This document shows positions 860 to 64,000 of a stretch of DNA of 64,000 nt, in pieces (within the stretch, counting starts at the first letter, position 1; each line of letters opens with the position of its first letter). The notes under the pieces are model-generated. The model saw only the letters and a program-made list of their open reading frames with translations. It made no database searches and was not told where the DNA came from. Both the position numbers and the translations under genes were made by a program. Origin of the DNA: Escherichia coli (GTDB lineage: Bacteria > Pseudomonadota > Gammaproteobacteria > Enterobacterales > Enterobacteriaceae); assembly GCF_016903815.1 (NCBI RefSeq), contig NZ_CP069973.1; one strand, 5' to 3'.

Positions 860-2071
860 TTAACCAAACCAGTGATGGAACATTAATTTAATGTAATCAA
901 TGATTTTGCCGAAGAAGTTGCCTTCCGGGATTTCTTGCAGCACAACCAGCGGGCGTTGTTCGATCGTTTTGCCATCAAGCTGGAAGTTGATAGTACCGAC
1001 GACCTGATTCTTTTGCAGCGGCGCATGCAATTCACTGCTGTTCAGCACATAGCTGGCTTTCAGATCTTTCATGCGGCCACGCGGAATGGTCAGATACACG
1101 TCTTTATCAACACCTAACGAAGCGCGATCAGAATCACCAAACCAAACCGGTTCAGAGGCGAACTCTTTACCTACTTTCAGTGGGTTAACGGTTTCGAAGA
1201 AACGGAAGCCCCAGGTCAGCAGTTTTTTACTTTCGGCTTCACGGCCTTTAAAAGTACGTCCGCCCATCACCGCAGAGATCAAGCGCATCTGGCCTTCAGT
1301 CGCAGAAGCAACAAGGTTGTAACCTGCTTTGTCAGTGTGTCCGGTTTTGATGCCGTCGACATTCAGGCTGTTATCCCATAACAGACCGTTACGGTTCAGC
1401 TGGCGAATACCGTTAAACGTAAATTCTTTTTCTTTATAGATCGAGTATTCATTCGGTACGTCACGGATCAACGCCTGGCCGATCAGCGCCATATCTCGCG
1501 CGGAGCTGTACTGACCATCAGCATCCAGACCATGTACCGTCTGGAAGTGGGTATTTTTCAGTCCCAGTGCGTTAACGTAGCTGTTCATCAAGCCAACAAA
1601 AGCGTCCTGGCTACCAGCGGCAAAATCGGCCATGGCGACACAAGCATCGTTACCCGATTGCAGGTTAATACCGCGGATCAGCTGAGAAACCGGAACCTGC
1701 ATGCCCGGTTTGAGGAACATCAGCGAAGAACCTTTAAACACCGGGTTACCGGTAGCCCATGCGTCGTTACCGATGGTGACTAAATCAGTTTCTTTAAATT
1801 TACCGGCTTTCATTGCCTGGCCGATAACGTAACTGGTCATCATTTTGGTCAGGCTGGCAGGATCGCGGCGGACATCTGCGTTCTGTTCGGCGAGCACTTT
1901 GCCGGAGTTATAGTCAATCAGGATGTAGGACTCCGCATCGATCTGCGGTACACCCGGGATCATAGTTTTGATATTCAGGTCATCGGCATGTGCAGCAGAG
2001 ATAAAGGCTGTGCAAAGAGCCGTGGTGAGCGCCAGGCGCTTCATGATACGAGCGGAAAAAATGGTATTCAT
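860..2071 (-). CDS. dacA: D-alanyl-D-alanine carboxypeptidase PBP5 (403 aa)
   Basis: Track ORF of 403 aa with signal peptide and an SLTK-type active-site serine motif; synteny. Confidence 0.9.
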
Positions 2072-2210
2072 GGTCTGAACTACGACATCCGTGATGGAAT
2101 TAAAAAAAGTGCCCTACTATAGCAAATGCACTACCGGCAGGCATCTGACTTTCCGCGTGACTTTGTTAACGTCATTTACAGAAATTGACACATCAGATGC
2201 CTGCTTTACG

Positions 2211-3299
2211 CTACTGCGCGGTGGTAATAAATGACTGTAATTGGGCTTCGGTTTGCAAACGTTGCTGCAAGGTACTGGCTTCGGCTTTGCTGGCGAATGG
2301 GCCAAGCTGGATCCGCCAGACTGCGCCATTTTGAGTTACGCGACCGGGGACGCCGAACTTCTGTCCCAGTTGCTGTTGGTACTGTTGCGCACGAGCCTGA
2401 TCGCTAACGGCTCCGACTTGCACCATAAAGTTGCCGCTGGCGCTTTGCGAGGTGGCTTGCGGTGTCACCATTGCAGGCGTGGTTGCAGGCGTTGTCGCCG
2501 GAGCTGTAACAACGGGCTGTGGTGCAGGTGTTGGTTCGCTGCCTTCCAGAACACCAGGCGCTAAGGTCGTTGGTGCGCCGAGGAAACCGCTGCTGGTTAC
2601 CGGCGCGCCGGTCGGATCTTCGCTTTTTAGCGTCGAATTACTGACCGGAAGAATGTCACCCTGCGGGCCAGACACTGAATTTGTTCCCGCGCCGCCGCTT
2701 AAATCGGGAGGTGCAGGCAGGGCGTAAGTCTGTTTGGCAACTGTGGTACAGGCCATACCAGGACCAGAAAGCGAACCATCCTGGGCGACAATAATCGGAT
2801 CGATACGAACTTTGGTGTTGTTTGACGTGTTAAGACGGTCAGCTGCCGCGCGAGAAAGCGAAATAACGCGGTCGTTGCCGTAAGGACCGCGATCATTAAT
2901 GCGCACCACGATCATTCGCCCGTTAGCCAGGTTAGTGATTCTGGCGTAGCTGGGGATCGGAAGCGTTGGATGGGCCGCTGTCAGCTGTGTCGGATCGAAT
3001 GCTTCGCCAGAGGCCGTCAGGTTACTGCCGGGTTCGGCATCATAGATTGCCGCCAGTCCCGCCTGGCTAAATCGAGACGGATCCTGCACGATTTTGTAGC
3101 TTTTACCGTCGCGCTGGTAATCCTGATTTGCCGTCGCGTTCAGTGGTTCGAAACGCGGGTCCGCCCCGCTAATTTCAACTATGGGGCCGTTACATACCGC
3201 AGGCTGCGGTACACTTACCGTCTGTTGCTGACCATCATCGCTTGTACATGCCGCGAGCATTCCTGCCGCGATGCAGATCCCGAGCCACTGCTTACGCAT
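2211..3299 (-). CDS. rlpA: Septal ring lytic transglycosylase/lipoprotein RlpA (362 aa)
   Basis: Lipobox (LAACTS), Pro/Thr/Ala-rich linker and C-terminal SPOR-like region; synteny downstream of mrdB. Confidence 0.85.
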   Translation of the reverse strand: MRKQWLGICIAAGMLAACTSDDGQQQTVSVPQPAVCNGPIVEISGADPRFEPLNATANQDYQRDGKSYKIVQDPSRFSQAGLAAIYDAEPGSNLTASGEAFDPTQLTAAHPTLPIPSYARITNLANGRMIVVRINDRGPYGNDRVISLSRAAADRLNTSNNTKVRIDPIIVAQDGSLSGPGMACTTVAKQTYALPAPPDLSGGAGTNSVSGPQGDILPVSNSTLKSEDPTGAPVTSSGFLGAPTTLAPGVLEGSEPTPAPQPVVTAPATTPATTPAMVTPQATSQSASGNFMVQVGAVSDQARAQQYQQQLGQKFGVPGRVTQNGAVWRIQLGPFASKAEASTLQQRLQTEAQLQSFITTAQ

Positions 3300-3309
3300 T
3301 GCGCACCTC

Positions 3310-4422
3310 TTACACGCTTTTCGACAACATTTTCCTGTGGGTGTGGATTGACATTACAATCCCGAACCCAGCCATCAGCACAATTAGCGCCGATCCTCCA
3401 TAACTGACCAGTGGGAGCGGAACCCCTACAACCGGCAGAATACCGCTTACCATACCAATATTTACGAAGACATAAACGAATAATATCAGCATTAAGCCGC
3501 CAGCCATGACGCGACCAAAGGTGGTTTGCGCTCTGGCGGCTATCCACAGCCCGCGCATGATCAGCAGAATGTAGAGAGCGAGCAGAATCAAAATGCCCAC
3601 TAATCCCAGCTCTTCCGCCAGTACCGCGAAGATAAAGTCGGTATGGCGTTCGGGGAGAAATTCAAGTTGTGACTGAGTGCCATGCAGCCAGCCTTTGCCG
3701 CGTAATCCGCCGGAGCCAATAGCAATTTTAGACTGAATAATGTGATAGCCCGCGCCGAGTGGGTCTGATTCCGGGTCCAGGAGCATCATTACGCGCTGGC
3801 GCTGGTAATCATGCATCAGGAAGAACCACAGAATCGGAATGAACGCCGCTACCAGCACTACTGCGACGCCAATCAGACGCCAGCTAAGGCCAGAGAGGAA
3901 CAGTACAAACAGACCGGAAAGCGCAACGAGGATTGATGTCCCCAGGTCAGGCTGTGCAGCCACCAGCAGCGTGGGCATAAATATCAGCACTAGCGCGATG
4001 CCAGTGTTCTTCAACGATGGCGGGCAAACGTCGCGGTTGATAAAGCGCGCAACCATCAGTGGTACGGCTATTTTGGCAATTTCCGACGGCTGAAAACGAA
4101 CAATACCGAGGTCCAGCCAGCGTTGAGCGCCTTTAGAGATGGCACCGAAAGCATCTACCGCCACCAGCAAAATAATACAGATGATATAGAGATAGGGGGC
4201 CCAGCCTTCATAAACGCGTGGAGGAATTTGCGCCATCACCACCATGATGACCAGACCCATCGCGATTTGGCCGATTTTACGCTCCATCATGCCAATATCC
4301 TGACCGCTGGCGCTCCAGATAACCAGGGCGCTGTAAACCAGCAATGCCAGTAAGATCAGCAGCATTGTGGGATCGAGATGGACTTTATCCCAGAATGTTT
4401 TTTTATTCGGATTATCCGTCAT
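3310..4422 (-). CDS. mrdB: Peptidoglycan glycosyltransferase RodA (SEDS family, 370 aa)
   Basis: Polytopic membrane protein of 370 aa, translationally adjacent to mrdA. Confidence 0.9.
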
Positions 4423-4424
4423 GA

Positions 4425-6326
4425 TTAATGGTCCTCCGCTGCGGCAACCGCTGGATTTTCCGCAGGCAGATCGGTGTTGTTATCACCCAGCATAATGTGG
4501 TCGAGGATCTGGCGCATCAGCGTACCAACCGCCGGACCCGCACCGCCGTTCTCCAGAATCATGGCGACAGCGACTTGCGGATTGTTGTATGGCGCAAAGG
4601 CGGTCATCAGTTTGTGGTCACGTAAACGCTCGGCAATTTTGTGCGCATTATAGGTTTCGTTCGCTTTCAGACCGAAGACCTGAGCGGTACCGGATTTCGC
4701 CGCAATTTTGTACGGTGCGCTGGCAAAGTATTTATGCGCCGTACCGTTAGGGCGGTTAGCAACACCGTACATACCGTCTTTCGCCAGCTCCCAGTAACCG
4801 GAATGAATATCGCCGACGGGCGGTTCATGCGGTTGTACCCATGGCACCTGTTTGCCGTCTTCGGCGGTGCTCATCAGCAAATGCGGAACCTTCACGATAC
4901 CGTCATTAATCAGGATCATCAGTGCCTTACTCATCTGGATTGGGGTCGCTGTCCAGTAACCCTGACCGATACCAACCGGAATGGTGTCACCCTGATACCA
5001 CGGTTTTTTAAAGCGTTTCTGTTTCCATTCGCGGGTAGGCATGTTGCCGGAACGTTCTTCCGCCAGGTCGATACCGGTGTAATGACCATAACCGAATTTA
5101 CCCATCCATTCGGAGAGGCGATCGATTCCCATATCGTAGGCCACCTGATAGAAGAAGGTATCCGCAGATTCTTCCAGCGATCTTGTGACATTCAGACGCC
5201 CGTGGCCCCATTTTTTCCAGTCACGATAACGTTTTTCCGAACCTGGCAGTTGCCACCAGCCTGGGTCAAACAGCGTCGTATTGCGCGTGATCACTCCGGC
5301 GCTCAATGCCGAAACCGCCACATAGGGTTTAACTGTAGACGCGGGAGGATAAACCCCCTGTGTAGCGCGGTTCACCAGCGGTGTATTCGGGTCGTTCAGC
5401 AAGGCGGAATAATCTTTGCTGGAGATACCGTCAACAAACAGGTTTGGGTCATAACTAGGCGTGGAAACCAGCGCCAGCACCCCACCTGTACGCGGATCGG
5501 TGACTACCACCGCTGCGCGGCTACCCGCCAGCAGCGTTTCAATATATTGCTGGAGTTTGAGATCCAGCGTCAGGTAAATATCGTGTCCGGCTTGCGGTGG
5601 GACTTCTTTTAACTGGCGGATAACACGCCCACGGTTGTTAACTTCAACCTCTTCATAACCGGTCTGACCGTGCAGCACGTCTTCATAGTAACGCTCAATG
5701 CCCAGCTTACCGATATCATGCGTTGCCGCATAGTTGGCCAGTTTGCCGTCATTATTCAGGCGTTCGACGTCTTTATCGTTGATTTTCGACACATAGCCGA
5801 TGACGTGGGTCAACGCCGAACCGTAAGGATAGTAACGACGTTTATAGCCTTTAACTTCAACACCCGGAAAACGGTACTGATTGACGGCAAAGCGAGCTAC
5901 TTGTACTTCGGTCAGGTTAGTTTTCACCGGAATGGAGGTGAAACGGTGTGAACGTGCGCGCTCTTTTCGGAATGCAGCAATATCGTCATCGGTCAGATCA
6001 ACCACGCTGCGCAAAGCGTCCAGCGTTTGCTGCACGTTATCGACTTTCTCCGGCATCATTTCTATCTGGTAGATAGTGCGGTTGAGGGCCAGAGGGATAC
6101 CGTTACGGTCGTAGATAATGCCGCGGCTGGGCGCGATAGGCACCAGCTTAATGCGGTTTTCATTAGAGCGGGTCTGGTAGTCGGTAAAGCGAACAATTTG
6201 CAGATTATACAGGTTGGCGATAAGCACGCCGGTCAGCAGCAAAATCCCCAAAAAGGCGACCAGCGCCCGGCGCACAAACAGCGCGGACTCTGCCGTATAG
6301 TCGCGAAAAGAGTTCTGTAGTTTCAT
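4425..6326 (-). CDS. mrdA: Peptidoglycan D,D-transpeptidase PBP2 (633 aa)
   Basis: 633 aa with N-terminal TM segment and transpeptidase STVK-type motif; synteny. Confidence 0.9.
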
Positions 6327-6356
6327 CCGCTGCGTTTTCTACTCAAAGCTCCCTTA

Positions 6357-6824
6357 TCACTCACGGTGATAAGGATGGTTGGTGGTGATGCTCCACGCCC
6401 GGTACAGACTCTCTGCGACCAGCACGCGAACCAACGGATGGGGGAGGGTAAGCGCCGACAGCGACCAGCTCTGCTCCGCCGCCGCTTTACAGGCAGGCGA
6501 CAACCCTTCAGGCCCGCCAATCAGTAGACTGACGTCGCGACCATCCAGCTTCCAGCGTTCCAGCTCAGCGGCTAACTGCGGCGTATCCCAGGGCTTGCCT
6601 GGAATATCGAGGGTGACAATGCGGTTTTTGCCTGCGGCCGCCAACATCTGCTCACCCTCTTTGTCGAGTATGCGCTTGATGTCCGCATTCTTGCCGCGTT
6701 TTCCGGCCGGAATTTCAATCAGCTCGAAGGGCATATCTTTCGGAAAACGACGCAGGTACTCGGTAAAACCGGTTTGTACCCAGTCCGGCATTTTCGTTCC
6801 CACGGCGACAAGTTGCAGCTTCAC
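6357..6824 (-). CDS. rlmH: 23S rRNA (pseudouridine1915-N3)-methyltransferase RlmH (155 aa)
   Basis: 155 aa SPOUT-family sequence; synteny. Confidence 0.88.
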
Positions 6825-7404: not shown

Positions 7405-8016
7405 TCATGCATTCTCGACCCCGATGGCACGGCTATTGAGGACGCGTAGCGTCGCGAATTTTTGGTTGATATCAATGGCGCTCCAACACCCCTGGTCAAC
7501 GCGAAAATGCCACATAGCTTCGGCAGGCATACCAATTAAACGGGCGATTAACAGACTCAGTACACCCTGATGGCTGACGACTAAAATATTCTGATAGTGC
7601 TGAAATTCACTAAGCCTTGCGATAAACCGTTCCACACGTTGTGAAAATGCCTGAAATCCTTCACCGTTCGTGGGGATAGCATGCTGCCAGTCATTGCACC
7701 ACGCGCTATAGTTTTCGGCATCTTCTTGCATGAGGTCGCGATGATGTCGCATCTCCCAGTCGCCAAAAAACATTTCGTTGAGTTCAGGGATGATTTGCAC
7801 GGGGAGCTGGCGATCACTGAGAACCCGTCGCGCGGTATGCTGTGCCCGTTCCAGTTCACTGCATAAAACCAGGTCAAAGGAAACACCATGTAGCAGCGTA
7901 TGCAGATTTTGCGCTTGCTCAATACCGCGCGCAGTCAGGGGGGTGGGCGCATGACCGCTGTAAAGACCATCGATATTCGCTTGCGTTTCATCATGACGAA
8001 TTAACCACAGTCGCAT
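7405..8016 (-). CDS. cobC: Adenosylcobalamin/alpha-ribazole phosphatase CobC (PhpB); start taken at the second Met of the track ORF
   Basis: Histidine phosphatase RHG motif (MRLWLIRHDETQ...); the track ORF begins one codon earlier, at 8019. Confidence 0.8.
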   Translation of the reverse strand: MRLWLIRHDETQANIDGLYSGHAPTPLTARGIEQAQNLHTLLHGVSFDLVLCSELERAQHTARRVLSDRQLPVQIIPELNEMFFGDWEMRHHRDLMQEDAENYSAWCNDWQHAIPTNGEGFQAFSQRVERFIARLSEFQHYQNILVVSHQGVLSLLIARLIGMPAEAMWHFRVDQGCWSAIDINQKFATLRVLNSRAIGVENA

Positions 8017-56956: not shown

Positions 56957-57163
56957 ATGGAACTCTACAGAGAATATCCTGCATGGCTTATCTTTTTACG
57001 CCGTACTTATGCGGTTGCAGCGGGCGTTCTGGCGCTGCCTTTCATGCTTTTCTGGAAAGACCGCGCCCGCTTTTACAGCTACCTGCACCGCGTCTGGTCG
57101 AAAACCAGCGAGAAACCGGTGTGGATGGATCAGGCAGAAAAGGCAACTGGTGATTTTTACTGA
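56957..57163 (+). CDS. ybfA: Small membrane protein YbfA (DUF2517, 68 aa)
   Basis: 68 aa with a hydrophobic core segment; conserved position upstream of rhsC. Confidence 0.75.
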
Positions 57164-57192
57164 TTGCTAAATATTACGTTCAAAGAAAAGAA

Positions 57193-57223
57193 AACCGCCA
57201 GCGGAAACGCTGGCGGTTTTTTT
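57193..57223 (+). terminator. ybfA rho-independent terminator (aaaaccgccagcg-gaaa-cgctggcggttttttt)
   Basis: 11-bp stem plus T7. Confidence 0.7.
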
Positions 57224-57410
57224 GTCGGGAAGACGTTCAGGTAAGTATTTATACATCGCATTACCCAACCGAAATATATATTCATGAAATATATATAAAT
57301 ATTTTCCTAATTGTTCTTATCTGACAGATATCTCACTTAAGGCTTTCTTATAAATCTGTAGGGTTTCGCCTGTCAGCAGACAAATAACCCGATAAAACAA
57401 GGATGAGCAG

Positions 57411-60400
57411 ATGAGTGGAAAACCGGCGGCGCGTCAGGGCGACATGACGCAGTATGGCGGTAGCATTGTCCAGGGTTCAGCCGGGGTGCGCATCGGTGCC
57501 CCCACCGGCGTGGCCTGTTCGGTGTGCCCCGGCGGGGTGACGTCCGGCCATCCGGTCAATCCGCTGCTCGGCGCGAAGGTCCTTCCCGGAGAAACCGACC
57601 TTGCCCTGCCCGGCCCGCTGCCGTTCATCCTCTCCCGCACCTACAGCAGTTACCGGACAAAAACGCCCGCGCCGGTGGGGAGCCTCGGCCCCGGCTGGAA
57701 AATGCCTGCGGATATCCGCTTACAGCTGCGCGATAACACACTGATACTCAGTGATAACGGCGGCAGAAGCCTGTATTTTGAGCACCTGTTTCCCGGTGAG
57801 GACGGTTACAGCCGCAGCGAGTCACTCTGGCTGGTGCGCGGCGGTGTCCTGAAACTGGATGAAGGTCACCGGCTGGCCGCACTCTGGCAGGCGCTGCCGG
57901 AAGAACTCCGCTTAAGTCCGCATCGTTATCTGGCGACGAACAGTCCGCAGGGGCCGTGGTGGGTACTCGGCTGGTGTGAGCGGGTGCCGGAGGCGGATGA
58001 GGTGCTGCCTGCGCCGCTGCCGCCGTACCGGGTACTGACCGGGCTGGTGGACCGCTTCGGGCGCACACAGACGTTCCACCGTGAGGCTGGCGGCGAAATC
58101 ACCGGCGTGACGGATGGTGCCGGGCGTCACTTCCGGCTGGTACTGACCACGCAGGCGCAGCGGGCAGAAGAAGCCCGGCAGCAGGCCTCTTCCGGCGGGA
58201 CGGAACCGTCCGCTTTTCCTGATACCCTGCCGGGTTACACCGAATATGGCCGGGACAACGGCATCCGTCTGTCTGCCGTGTGGCTGACGCACGACCCGGA
58301 ATACCCGGAGAATTTACCTGCCGCGCCGCTGGTGCGCTATGGCTGGACGCCACGCGGCGAACTGGCGGCGGTGTATGACCGCAGCAATACACAGGTGCGC
58401 AGCTTTACTTACGATGATAAATACCGGGGCCGGATGGTGGCGCACCGTCACACGGGCCGGCCGGAAATCCGTTACCGTTACGACAGCGACGGGCGGGTGA
58501 CAGAACAGCTAAACCCGGCAGGCTTAAGCTACACGTATCAGTATGAGAAAGACCGCATCACCATCACCGACAGTATGGACCGCCGTGAAGTGCTGCACAC
58601 GCAGGGCGAAGGCGGGCTGAAGCGGGTGGTGAAAAAGGAACACGCGGACGGCAGCGTCACGCAGAGTCAGTTTGATGCGGTGGGCAGGCTTAAGGCACAG
58701 ACGGATGCCGCAGGCCGGACGACTGAGTACAGCCCGGATGTGGTGACGGGACTCATCACGCGCATCACCACACCGGATGGCAGGGCATCGGCATTTTACT
58801 ATAACCACCACAACCAGTTAACGTCAGCCACCGGGCCTGACGGGCTGGAAATACGCCGGGAATATGATGAATCCGGCCGTCTGATTCAGGAAACCGCACA
58901 CAACGGCGATATCACCCGCTACCGTTATGATAATCCACACAGTGACTTACCCTGCGCAACGGAAGATGCCACCGGCAGCCGGAAAACCATGACATGGAGC
59001 CGTTACGGTCAGTTGCTGACCGTCACTGACTGTTCCGGTTATGTAACCCGTTATGACCATGACCGTTTTGGTCAGGTGACGGCGGTGCACCGCGAGGAAG
59101 GGCTGAGTCAGTACCGCGCATACGACAGCCGTGGACAGTTAATTGCGGTGAAAGACACGCAGGGCCATGAAACGCGGTATGAATACAACGCCGCCGGTGA
59201 CCTGACCGCCGTCATTGCCCCGGACGGCAGCAGAAACGGGACACAGTACGATGCGTGGGGAAAGGCCATCCGTACCACACAGGGCGGTCTGACGCGCAGT
59301 ATGGAATACGATGCTGCCGGACGGGTCATCCGCCTGACCAGTGAAAACGGCAGCCACACCACCTTCCGTTACGATGTACTCGACCGGCTGATACAGGAAA
59401 CCGGCTTTGACGGCCGCACACAGCGTTATCACCACGACCTGACCGGCAAACTTATCCGCAGCGAGGATGAGGGGCTGGTCACCCACTGGCACTATGACGA
59501 AGCAGACCGCATCACACAGCGAACGGTGAATGGTGAAACCGCAGAACAGTGGCGGTACGACGAACGCGGCTGGCTGACACAAATCAGCCATCTCAGCGAA
59601 GGCCACCGGGTGACGGTGCATTACGGGTATGATGAGAAAGGCCGCCTGACCGGTGAGCGCCAGACGGTGCATCACCCGCAGACGGAAGCACTGCTCTGGC
59701 AGCATGAAACCAGACACGCTTACAACGCGCAGGGACTGGCGAACCGCTGTATACCGGACAGCCTGCCCGCCGTGGAATGGCTGACTTACGGCAGCGGCTG
59801 GCTGGCAGGCATGAAACTCGGCGACACACCGCTGGTGGATTTCACCCGCGACCGCCTGCACCGGGAAACGCTGCGCAGCTTCGGCCGTTATGAACTCACC
59901 ACCGCTTATACCTCTGCCGGGCAGTTACAGAGCCAGCACCTGAACAGCCTGCAGTATGACCGCGATTACACCTGGAACGACAACGGCGAACTCATCCGCA
60001 TCAGCAGCCCGCGCCAGACCCGGAGTTACAGCTACAGCGACACCGGCAGGCTGACCGGCGTCCACACCACGGCAGCGAACCTTGATATCCGCATCCCGTA
60101 TGCCACGGACCCGGCGGGCAACCGCCTGCCCGACCCGGAGCTGCACCCGGACAGCCCCCTCAGCGCATGGCCGGATAACCGTATCGCCCGTGACGCGCAC
60201 TATCTTTACCGGTATGACCGTCACGGCAGGCTGACGGAGAAAACCGACCTCATCCCGGAAGGGGTTATCCGCACGGATGATGAGCGGACTCACCGGTACC
60301 ATTACGACAGCCGGCACCGGCTGGTGCACTACACGCGGACACAATATGCAGAGCCGCTGGTCGAAAGTCGCTATCTTTACGACCTGCTGGGCCGCAGGGT

Positions 60401-61550
60401 GGCAAAACGGGTATGGCGGCGTGAACGGGACCTGACGGGCTGGATGTCGCTGTCATGGAAACCGGAAGTGCCCTGGTACGGCTGGGACGGCGACCGGCTG
60501 ACCACAATACAGAACGACAGAACCCGCATCCAGACGGTTTATCAGCCGGGGAGCTTCACGCCACTCATCAGAGTTGAAACTGCCACCGGTGAGCTGGCGA
60601 AAACGCAGCGCCGCAGCCTGGCGGATGCGCTTCAGCAGTCCGGCGGTGAAGACGGTGGCAGTGTGGTGTTCCCGCCGGTGCTGGTGCAGATGCTCGACCG
60701 GCTGGAAAGTGAAATCCTGGCTGACCGGGTGAGTGAGGAAAGCCGCCGCTGGCTGGCATCGTGCGGCCTGACGGTGGAGCAGATACAAAACCAGATGGAC
60801 CCGGTGTACACGCCGGCGCGAAAAATCCACCTGTACCACTGCGACCATCGCGGCCTGCCGCTGGCGCTTGTCAGCACGGAAGGGGCAACAGAATGGTGCG
60901 CAGAATACGATGAATGGGGCAACCTGCTGAATGAAGAGAACCCGCATCAGCTGCAGCAGCTCATCCGCCTGCCGGGTCAGCAGTATGATGAGGAGTCCGG
61001 CCTGTATTACAACCGCCACCGCTATTATGACCCGCTGAAGGGGCGGTATATCACTCAGGATCCGATTGGACTGAAGGGGGGATGGAATTTTTATCAGTAT
61101 CCGTTAAATCCGATCTCAGAGATAGACCCACAAGGGTTAAATCCGTTAATTCTTAGTGTTGTAGCACTGATGAGTTGCGGTTTGTTTTCATCAGGTGGTG
61201 TTATCCAAAGTGGGCAACAACGCAGAGATCAATATGGCCGTAAAGTTAATCCAGAAGCCGACAAATTAACAGATGAACATAAGTCAGGTGTAAATCCTGG
61301 TGGTAACTGTAGTCCCCAGAACCTGAGTGACTTACAAAATGAAAAAAACAGATTATGTAACCAGTCTAGAGCTTGCGCTCCTCAGATGCTGAGAAAAGAA
61401 ATATTGAGACGGTACGAGATAAATTTGGCGTGCGCTTCGGTCAGAAAGCAGATTAATAATCAGTGCTTTGGTGGTGGAGATAAGGCCCATATGGAAGAAG
61501 AGAATAAAGCATATAAAACAGCAGCTGATTGCAGTGGCTTAATAAAATGA
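57411..61550 (+). CDS. rhsC: PAAR-domain RHS-repeat polymorphic toxin (RhsC-type, 1379 aa) with a variable low-GC C-terminal toxin tip
   Basis: N-terminal PAAR-like segment ([11 protein letters not shown]...), many YD/RHS repeats ([27 protein letters not shown] and others), core-end motif PxxxxDPxGL (DPIGLKGG...EIDPQGL) at about 61080–61140, then an AT-rich Cys-rich tip of roughly 135 aa. Confidence 0.9.
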
Positions 61551-62050
61551 AAAAAATAATTTTCTCTAACGAGAGTGCAGTCTATGATGAACTTATGATT
61601 CATTTCCCATGCCAGCCATTACCTCATATTTCAAATGATATTACAGGGCTGGAGGAACTGGATATTGTATATAATTTTTTCCAAAAGAAACAATGGAATG
61701 AAATAGCCAACAATTTTAAAATAAAGGATGACTCTTATGCTTTAGAGTTAGGAATTACATTCCTCCCTGAGAAAGTATTCTGCTATTACATCCCTCTGTA
61801 TATTTATGCCTCGTTGTTTAATAAGAATGATTTTTGGGTTTTTGAATCCGATTTTATTCAACAATATTTATGTCCTGAGTATCGGGATCACGATGATTTT
61901 TTGAATTTTGTTTTTAATTTTTCAGATATACAACTATCTATTATTGCACAGTTTATGTCTTATGAATCAGACGCTGGATTCTTTTATGCAAGTAAAGCTT
62001 GTATGGATTTTTGGGAAGATTATTCACCTCTATTACATAAGAAAATTTAA
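61547..62050 (+). CDS. Putative cognate immunity protein for the RhsC C-terminal toxin (167 aa from [10 protein letters not shown]); no family I recognise
   Basis: Start overlaps the rhsC stop (ATGA); strongly AT-rich like the toxin tip; position is canonical for Rhs immunity genes; the track ORF starts 6 codons upstream. Confidence 0.6.
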
Positions 62051-62102
62051 TCGTAAAAGGTATAAATGGTTTAATAAAAAACTTGTCTACTCGTTGGAGT
62101 AG

Positions 62103-62720
62103 ATGAAAAATAAGATGACGTTGGCATATAGATCACTGCGAATAATCCACCTCTACCACTGCGACTATCGCGGCCTGCCGCTGACGCTTATCAGCCCTGA
62201 CGGGGCAACAGAATGGTGCGCAGAATATGATGAATGGGGCAACCTGCTGACTGAAGAGAACCCGCAGCACCTGCAGCAGCTTATCCGTCTGCCGGGGCAG
62301 CAGTATGATGAGGAGTCCGGCCTGTATTACAACCGCCACCGCTATTATGACCCGCTGCAGGGGCGGTGTATCACTCAGGATCCGATTGGGCTGGAAGGCG
62401 GGTGGAATCAGTATGTATATGCTTCCATACATCCAACCTATTCTATTGATCCGCTGGGCTTAATTGATAAACCTGCTCCAGTATTCAATCGAGAACTAAA
62501 TTCAGATGCGTATTATCTTGCCGTAAATAATTGCTATTCATATGCTCTAAATAGGTATGGAAATCCTGGGAGTAGGATTTTTGGCGGCGGAGGATTACAA
62601 CCTGGAGAATTATCTGGAAAAGAGTTTTCTAAACTCACTTGTAGTAGTATTTTTGAAGCGTCAAAAAATGATGGTGCCAAGGACAGGGAAAGATCATCAG
62701 AAGTACACTTTTTGTACTAA
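62103..62720 (+). CDS. Orphan Rhs C-terminal module: conserved core end ([10 protein letters not shown]...DPIGLEGG...DPLGL) plus a distinct short toxin tip of about 85 aa; possibly truncated or pseudogenic
   Basis: About 90% nucleotide identity to the rhsC core end over roughly 260 bp, followed by unrelated AT-rich sequence; lacks the Rhs N-terminus. Confidence 0.65.
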
Positions 62721-62827
62721 ATAATTCGCATTTTATGTTTAAAAATTGAGATATTCCTCATTACCTGAAGCTGTTTTTTATTGCTTATACATGATCAAAT
62801 ACTCCTTACATAATTAAGGAGAACAAA

Positions 62828-63651
62828 ATGGAACTTAAAAAATTGATGGAACATATTTCTATTATCCCCGATTACAGACAAGCCTGGAAAGTGGAACATA
62901 AATTGTCGGATATTCTACTGTTGACTATTTGTGCCGTTATTTCTGGTGCAGAAGGCTGGGAAGATATAGAGGATTTTGGGGAAACACATCTCGATTTTTT
63001 GAAGCAATATGGTGATTTTGAAAATGGTATTCCTGTTCACGATACCATTGCCAGAGTTGTATCCTGTATCAGTCCTGCAAAATTTCACGAGTGCTTTATT
63101 AACTGGATGCGTGACTGCCATTCTTCAGATGATAAAGGCGTCATTGCAATTGATGGAAAAACGCTCCGGCACTCTTATGACTAGAGTCGCCGCAGGGGAG
63201 CGATTCATGTCATTAGTTCGTTCTCAACAATGCACAGTCTGGTCATCGGACAGATCAGGACGGATGAGAAATCCAATGAAATTACAGCTATCCCTGAACT
63301 TCTTAACATGTTGGATATTAAAGGAAAAATTATCACAACTGATGCGATGGGTTGCCAGAAAGATATCGCAGAGAAGATACAAAAACAGGGCGGTGATTAT
63401 TTATTCGCTGTAAAAGGAAACCAGGGGCGGCTAAATAAAGCCTTTGAGGAAAAGTTTCCGCTGAAAGAATTAAATAATCCAGAGCATGGCAGTTACGCAA
63501 TGAGTGAAAAGAGTCACGGCAGAGAAGAAATCCGTCTTCACATTGTTTGCGATGTCCCTGATGAACTTATTGATTTCACGTTTGAATGGAAAGGGCAGCC
63601 ATGGACAGAAACTACCTGACGTCAGTCCTTGCGGGGAGCGGGCTTTCGTAA
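62828..63651 (+). pseudogene. H-repeat-associated (ISAs1-family) transposase remnant with an in-frame TAG and an internal deletion
   Basis: Two track ORFs (62828..63184, 63230..63619) lie in the same frame, separated by TAG at 63182; recalled intact homologs have Lys there. The body ends at ...[11 protein letters not shown] and the conserved C-terminal peptide [16 protein letters not shown] reappears out of frame at 63601..63651. Confidence 0.75.
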
Positions 63652-63736
63652 TCTTGCCCTGCTACAACAGGATTAACTTCACAAATATCATTTCCCAACG
63701 TCTACACTTACTCCTGTAAACCGTTCAGGAGCAGTA

Positions 63737-64000
63737 ATGAATCAGCAACGATTTGATGACAGCACCCTAATCCGTATCTTCGCCCTTCATGAGTTACATC
63801 GACTGAAAGAACATGGCTTAACGCGCGGGGCACTCAACGATTATCACAGCCGCTATAAACTCGTCTTTCTGGCCCATTCCCAGCCCGAGTACCGCAAACT
63901 TGGCCCGTTTGTGGCTGATATTCACCAGTGGCAAAATCTGGATGACTATTACAACCAGTACCGCCAACGCGTAATTGTTTTGCTTTCTCACCCTGCCAAC
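63737..64000 (+). CDS. ybgA: DUF1722-family protein YbgA, 5' portion (runs off the window end)
   Basis: ATG at 63737 preceded by an aggag Shine–Dalgarno; open frame to the window end; identification by synteny and is tentative. Confidence 0.5.
   Translation, partial: MNQQRFDDSTLIRIFALHELHRLKEHGLTRGALNDYHSRYKLVFLAHSQPEYRKLGPFVADIHQWQNLDDYYNQYRQRVIVLLSHPAN

Follow-up and report, generated by a model that had tools for sequence, protein, structure and literature searches.

The 64-kb stretch of Escherichia coli DNA analyzed here (the window) carries, at positions 62103 to 62720 on the plus strand, an open reading frame (ORF) of 205 amino acids (aa) that is a real, orphan (displaced) Rhs C-terminal module at the rhsC locus and very probably represents a non-functional relic of two successive events at that locus. 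The original prediction, made from the sequence alone, had offered two alternatives: a truncated or inactive toxin tip, or an immunity gene lost when an H-repeat element inserted. The analysis supports both, as outcomes of a single rearrangement. Identity to intact copies of the tip ends at 62683/62684, with 73 toxin residues missing, and the remnant is predicted to be inactive; the immunity gene is present in strain GF43 and the other intact copies and is undetectable in all 242 genomes that share the junction. The ORF is a routine decayed Rhs orphan, an ordinary pseudogene and not a hidden weapon; its RefSeq PGAP label is likewise pseudogene, “missing N-terminus.”

The rhsC locus and the composition of the ORF

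The genes of this region come in the chromosomal order kdpA-kdpF-ybfA-rhsC ... ybgA-phrB. The resident full-length rhsC gene (57411 to 61550, plus strand) encodes 1379 aa, is annotated as “RHS element core protein” in strain 7/2, and ends in an Ntox16 tip, with its last 136 aa (61140 to 61550) matching Pfam PF15523 at an E value of 7.7e-13. Its stop codon is overlapped by the presumed Ntox16 immunity gene (61547 to 62050, plus strand; WP_000720081.1, 167 aa), which is annotated as hypothetical, has no match to any NCBIfam family, and also comes after rhsC in strain GF43. These two genes lie directly upstream of the ORF, which is the position of an orphan module.

The ORF is a chimera of four parts: a non-Rhs leader, the 3' end of an Rhs core, half of a toxin domain, and read-through into an insertion sequence (IS). 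The leader (62103 to 62137, plus strand) consists of 12 codons without Rhs homology, homology to the rhsC core beginning only at 62138, and is part of the 3' flank of the incoming Ntox16/immunity cassette. It is followed by 108 codons of Rhs core (62138 to 62462, plus strand; residues 13 to 120), a 3' fragment that carries the PxxxxDPxGL boundary motif and ends in DPLGL (62448 to 62462). The Pfam RHS profile (PF03527) matches the N-terminal part of the ORF with an E value of 6e-12, NCBIfam RHS_core (NF041261) covers its last 119 profile positions (1143 to 1261 of 1261) with an E value of 2.9e-56, and Rhs_assc_core (TIGR03696) matches the core part with an E value of 8.4e-23. The same segment forms a direct repeat (D1) of 271 nucleotides (nt) with 92% identity between the orphan (62138 to 62408) and the core 3' segment of the full-length rhsC (60818 to 61088, plus strand). 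The original prediction had recognized the core, while taking it to be about 90 residues long and to open the ORF.

Two codons set the orphan core apart from intact copies. At 62367 to 62369, TGT in place of TAT puts Cys for Tyr in the conserved GRYITQDP motif, relative to both intact copies, and at 62251, ACT in place of AAT gives Thr for Asn, relative to the intact orphan of the draft genome GCA_044158945.1.

The third part, residues 1 to 74 of a 147-residue toxin domain (62463 to 62683, plus strand; 221 nt), is identical to the intact copies and then diverges from them. The last base of codon 194 (D194) is the first base of the IS (62684), and from there on the ORF reads CAGGGAAAGATCATCAGAAGTACACTTTTTGTACTAA, the IS inverted repeat. 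This tail (62684 to 62720, plus strand; the last base of D194, 11 codons, and the stop) was recognized by blastn and aligns to the K-12 ybfL and ybfQ copies from 62684 on. That the ORF carries a different tip, unrelated to the core, was correctly predicted; the 85 aa allotted to that tip resolve into 74 native residues followed by 11 residues and a stop from the IS.

With a GGAG sequence 3 nt before its ATG, the ORF may be translated to some extent. An inverted repeat, TCTACTC-GTTG-GAGTAGA (62086 to 62103), ends on the first base of the ATG and includes this candidate ribosome-binding GGAG; it was scored as terminator-like on the minus strand only.

The point where toxin-tip identity stops

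When positions 62463 to 62827 were compared by blastn with 5426 complete E. coli genomes, more than 5000 of them matched nothing before about 62681; what they share with the query from there on is the left end of ISAs1/H-repeat copies. In strain 23CRST032, by contrast, the match is confined to 62463 to 62683 and lies within a full-length rhsC. Pairwise alignment shows the window tip to be 100% identical to nt 1 to 221 of the intact 23CRST032 tip, with a break at 62683/62684, exactly where the ISAs1 left end starts; the breakpoint is the same against GCA_044158945.1 and against GF43. Two components of an orphan Rhs module are missing here, namely a complete toxin domain (74 of 147 residues are present) and a downstream immunity gene. 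Neither the immunity protein nor tip residues 75 to 147 are encoded anywhere in the 64-kb window, as judged by tblastn, and the statement that no immunity gene lies near the ORF extends, by blastn, to the 242 genomes with the same junction.

The H-repeat element

The element that ends the toxin domain is a defective H-repeat of the ISAs1 family (62684 to 63661, plus strand; 978 bp). Its terminal inverted repeats are CAGGGAAAGATC... on the left, at 62684, and ...GATCTTGCCCTG on the right, which reads CAGGGCAAGATT... as complement at 63661; the two repeats agree at 10 of their first 12 positions, and both element ends align to the ends of K-12 H-repeat copies. Compared by blastn with the 1290-bp K-12 ybfL copy, it has an internal deletion of 312 bp, which is also present in K-12 ybfD. 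The transposase gene starts with an ATG at 62828 and has an in-frame stop at 63182 to 63184; its two ORF fragments match positions 1 to 90 and 108 to 229 of the 314-position profile NF033564 (E values of 1e-35 and 2.1e-39), and PGAP remarks “internal stop; missing C-terminus.” The gap of 108 bp that had been predicted between the ORF and the H-repeat holds true as the distance to the transposase ATG (107 to 108 bp); the element itself begins inside the ORF.

The junction of the right end with the ybgA upstream region is found in 3485 of the 5426 genomes, including K-12, and the left junction with the toxin tip is specific to the 242 genomes; the right junction is therefore the older of the two, and this defective H-repeat copy is old. 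There is no target-site duplication, the flanks being ...CCAAGGA on the left and CTACAAC... on the right. Between the right end and the return of collinearity with GF43 upstream of ybgA, blastn leaves 18 bp (63662 to 63679, plus strand; CTACAACAGGATTAACTT), perhaps from an allele of the ybgA upstream spacer that has diverged and undergone a small deletion.

The RhsC element of K-12 (rhsC-ybfB-ybfO-ybfC-ybfQ-ybfL-ybfD-ybgA) occupies the same site, also has an orphan fragment downstream of rhsC and H-repeat/ISAs1 sequence at the ybgA-proximal end, and its ybfD-type copy shares with the window element both the 312-bp deletion and the right junction. In contrast to the window, K-12 has a different orphan (ybfO) with an intact downstream gene, ybfC, and three H-repeat copies. 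In the window copy the left inverted repeat still has its first 24 nt, which are missing from K-12 ybfD (4129 to 5082 of the K-12 locus).

Intact modules in other strains

Alignment to other E. coli genomes, as proposed with the original prediction, reveals full-length versions with a longer tip (147 aa) and an immunity gene (124 aa). The tip occurs at this locus in three architectures. In 40 complete genomes, including 23CRST032 and ST2747, the tip is attached as the C terminus of rhsC and the gene order is rhsC, immunity gene, ybgA, with no H-repeat; in the two named strains, 147 residues extend beyond DPLGL, a 124-aa ORF overlaps the rhsC stop, and ybgA follows 285 bp further on. The 124-aa immunity protein starts with MFTKLSIAILLAFSAYVHA/ETS, a typical signal peptide. 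Strain GF43 has rhsC, the WP_000720081 immunity gene, an orphan with an intact tip, the 124-aa immunity gene, and ybgA, again with no H-repeat, and the draft GCA_044158945.1 has the same orphan 5' junction as the window together with an intact tip and immunity gene. The third architecture, a half tip set against the H-repeat, is that of the window and 241 other complete genomes, with one such place per genome. Intact copies thus have 73 toxin residues and an overlapping 124-aa immunity gene more than the window copy.

Some match to the tip and immunity DNA is found in 620 genomes, of which 41 have the whole module, 242 have tip nt 1 to 221 only, and 337 retain no more than the final 132 nt of the immunity gene. 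At distant blastn sensitivity, immunity-gene DNA was found in 378 genomes (the 41 full-length copies and the 337 with a 3' remnant) and in none of the 242 window-type genomes. The 5' junction of the orphan (Ntox16-immunity gene, spacer, and orphan start) is present in 243 of the 5426 genomes, namely the 242 truncated ones and GF43. None of the 41 intact-module genomes has an H-repeat at that place.

The remnant in the 337 genomes is of a separate kind. In WCHEC020031 (4001 to 4132) and the other complete genomes of this type, the 132-bp 3' remnant of the immunity gene abuts the right end of a different, ybfL-type H-repeat and is followed by the native spacer and then ybgA, as though the same ancestral tip/immunity module had been worn away independently from its opposite end. 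A single insertion leaving both the left remnant (ending at tip nt 221) and this right remnant (query nt 672 to 803) was considered and rejected, as the two lie 450 bp apart.

In blastn comparisons with the GF43 locus, the window is collinear from 57000 to 62683 (GF43 1030 to 6721, 97.75% identity) and again from 63680 to 64000 (GF43 7531 to 7851, 94.4% identity). Between these segments, GF43 has 809 bp, made up of the immunity gene with 223 bp of tip before it and 227 bp of spacer after it, where the window has 996 bp (the H-repeat and the 18 bp). A simple insertion of the H-repeat into the tip, with the rest of the tip and the immunity gene lying beyond the element, would account for the presence of both IS ends (62684 and 63661) but would leave that DNA to the right of the element, where the ybgA upstream region comes immediately after the IS right end. 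In addition, the 809 bp of the GF43 arrangement are gone and no target duplication is seen, the 3' half of the tip and the immunity gene are absent from the window and from the 242 genomes, and tip nt 222 to 444 with the immunity gene follow the right end of an H-repeat in none of the 620 genomes with any match. No intermediate with an inserted H-repeat and the remainder of the tip and immunity gene retained was found among these 620 genomes either, and we regard a simple insertion as extremely unlikely.

The junction itself could in principle come from misassembly of Rhs or IS repeats. Rhs cores and H-repeat copies number 5 to 10 per genome and often break draft assemblies, and the contig of GCA_044158945.1 ends within the orphan. 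Against this, a 728-nt query spanning the ORF is fully covered in 242 independent complete genomes, with 100% identity in strain 7/2 and many others (all 30 of the 30 records listed), which leaves an artefact with a vanishingly small probability.

The ORF is at or near 100% identity across the 242 genomes, and this conservation could also be taken to mean that the chimera has been kept for a new role, as a regulator, as a decoy for the partner of an incoming toxin, or as a substrate for recombination with rhsC. The 271-nt repeat shared with rhsC could support such recombination, and a passage in PMC3967940 indicates that orphan Rhs modules of Salmonella can be activated in this way. We nevertheless consider a new role very unlikely. 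Recent common descent accounts for the conservation, given that the neighboring defective IS is conserved to the same degree. If the orphan did recombine with rhsC across the repeat, the working Ntox16 tip would be lost along with its immunity gene, and the resulting fusion would be catalytically dead. The orphan core already has the Tyr-to-Cys change in GRYITQDP. Finally, a promoter scan found no sigma-70-like promoter directly upstream of the ORF, and promoter-like sites around it are no more frequent than in shuffled sequences.

The intact parent domain and its immunity protein

Profile searches of the tip against Pfam and NCBIfam, suggested with the original prediction, name no family. The intact tip has no Pfam match even at an E value of ≤10 and no match in NCBIfam or by sequence in PDB, and the same searches assign the remnant, the intact tip, and the immunity protein to no family beyond the Rhs core. 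Among 48 family members, none matches the Pfam families Tox-PL1/Gln_amidase, Tox-PL-2, NlpC/P60, or CHAP. A word-indexed protein search retrieves a single partial Shigella protein with the 85-aa tip and five proteins with the full tip; the toxin family emerged only in an exhaustive search of representative sequences, clustered at 50% identity, which yielded 825 clusters at E values of ≤1e-3. Of 153 hits examined, 78 have the domain no more than 15 residues from the C terminus, and many of these are on Rhs/YD proteins. DUF7689 (PF24738) is matched by 1 of the 48 members at an E value of ≤1e-3 and by 7 of the 48 at ≤0.1, and the E. coli tip itself does not match it; a literature search on DUF7689 found no paper.

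Only Cys24 and His104 are strictly invariant in an alignment of 131 sequences. In a 48-sequence alignment, the invariant residues are Cys24 (in NNCYxYA), His104 (in DYHWYRQD), Arg107, Pro47, and Gly112; Asp102, Asp109, Trp114, Ser115, and Lys117 are nearly invariant, and Cys60 and Cys80 are conserved. The AlphaFold2 model of the intact tip (pLDDT 92.3, pTM 0.87) places Cys24 at the N terminus of a helix and His104 on a strand, with all five strands beyond residue 74. Tae3, Tse1, and NlpC/P60 proteins are among its fold matches, and a Foldseek search against PDB returned nothing significant. On the strength of the invariant Cys24 and His104 and of this confident model, the intact domain appears to belong to a large uncharacterised papain-fold family. 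It resembles the papain-fold toxins Tox-PL1/2/3 and Tox-NlpC/P60 (Zhang et al. 2012, PMC3482391) and the type VI secretion amidases Tae1 to Tae4 in its location at an Rhs C terminus, an N-C...H signature with Cys at a helix N terminus and His on a strand, and a small neighboring immunity gene whose product has a signal peptide.

The intact parent domain is accordingly modeled as a Cys-His hydrolase, and it is predicted to act in the periplasm; a cell-wall amidase or peptidase is the most plausible activity. Action outside the cytoplasm is suggested by the signal peptide of the immunity protein, by a homologue of that protein, encoded beside a distant family member, that also has a signal peptide, by the multi-pass membrane protein that neighbors another family member, and by the conserved cysteine pair (Cys60/Cys80). 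Periplasmic action would be unusual for Rhs tips.

Among the structural relatives of the model in AFDB50 are cnidarian proteins, viral-metagenome entries, and eukaryotic proteins that bear the label “insoluble matrix shell protein 1” (Foldseek probability 1.00, TM-score about 0.7), which hints at a wider distribution of the fold. In addition, on a metagenome contig (125 to 6603) a distant member of the toxin family belongs to a row of three Rhs C-terminal fragments whose tips all differ, one being GH-E. This array, a classic case of the orphan/poly-immunity type, includes small downstream ORFs and is flanked by immunity genes of the Imm44 and SUFU types.

State of the window copy and proposed history

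The window remnant retains four helices, Cys24 (in NNCYSYA), and Cys60, and lacks Cys80, Asp102, His104, Arg107, Asp109, and all five beta-strands. With one half of the Cys-His pair absent, it does not qualify as a papain-fold enzyme, and the absence of His104 and of the whole beta-sheet means that, by the model, it should be inactive as a Cys-His hydrolase. The further suggestion that orphan tips are a reservoir of toxin diversity does not apply to this orphan, which is half-length and lacks His104.

Could the 85-residue tip nonetheless be a complete short toxin, with its immunity gene elsewhere in the genome? The ORF is open for 205 codons behind an ATG preceded by GGAG, and no Pfam family sets an expected length for the tip. 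Yet the intact copies have 147 residues, are identical to the window copy up to residue 74, and diverge exactly at the IS end; the last 11 residues come from IS sequence that over 5000 genomes contain; neither the invariant His104 nor any beta-strand is left; and blastn, even when set to distant sensitivity, detects immunity-gene DNA in 0 of the 242 genomes. We give a short toxin next to no probability. Both readings against which the original prediction was to be judged, an intact full-length tip with its immunity gene elsewhere and an assembly artefact, were looked at, and neither is borne out.

Truncation of a displaced module remains the preferred reading, and the three extant architectures suggest how it may have come about. 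An ancestral rhsC would have carried the papain-fold tip and its periplasmic immunity gene directly upstream of ybgA. An Ntox16-tip/immunity cassette would then have recombined into the conserved 3' end of the core, displacing the old tip with 108 core codons downstream as an orphan. For this first step, C-terminal displacement, the architecture is observed and we infer the direction of change. In a second step, decay, a rearrangement linked to the defective ISAs1/H-repeat would have removed 809 bp (73 toxin codons, the immunity gene, and 227 bp of spacer), joining the IS left end to toxin codon 74, so that translation would run 11 codons into the IS inverted repeat and stop. The endpoints of this step are observed, and an IS-associated deletion is its likely mechanism. 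With the right junction older than the left, GF43, which has no H-repeat, may be a cousin rather than a direct ancestor. Candidate routes are deletion of DNA adjacent to a resident IS, recombination of one H-repeat copy with another, and import of an H-repeat-ybgA segment by recombination. Losing the catalytic half of a toxin and its immunity gene in one and the same deletion does the cell no harm.

Relation to known systems and implications

Dissociated Rhs tips formed by C-terminal displacement have been described previously (Jackson et al. 2009, PMC2935791; Poole et al. 2011, PMC3150448). Like those, the window orphan consists of a core 3' fragment with DPxGL and a different tip, which is the attached tip at the same locus in other strains. 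It differs in that its tip has been halved by an IS-associated deletion and its immunity gene is gone, leaving a relic rather than a usable toxin/immunity cassette. The attached, displaced, and truncated states fit the C-terminal displacement model, with decay afterwards, and decay of other dissociated Rhs fragments was also described by Jackson et al. (2009, PMC2935791). According to the same work, clade I E. coli loci generally lack dissociated tips.

Little depends on the window copy as such, a dead fragment that RefSeq already treats as a pseudogene. What it provides is a dated, base-pair-resolved life cycle of an Rhs tip, with all stages extant: attached to rhsC, orphaned through the Ntox16 cassette, and destroyed in association with an H-repeat. 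It also points to an uncharacterised papain-fold toxin/immunity pair and corrects the expectation that all orphan tips are a usable reserve of toxin diversity. Finally, the remnant may mark the loss of an uncharacterised, very widespread family of periplasm-acting papain-fold toxins, borne by other secreted proteins as well as by Rhs C termini, and this loss may have left the 242-genome lineage specifically killable by strains with the intact toxin, a reading to which we assign somewhat less than an even chance. If true, this lineage, having lost both weapon and shield, would be susceptible to the roughly 41 E. coli strains that carry the intact toxin.
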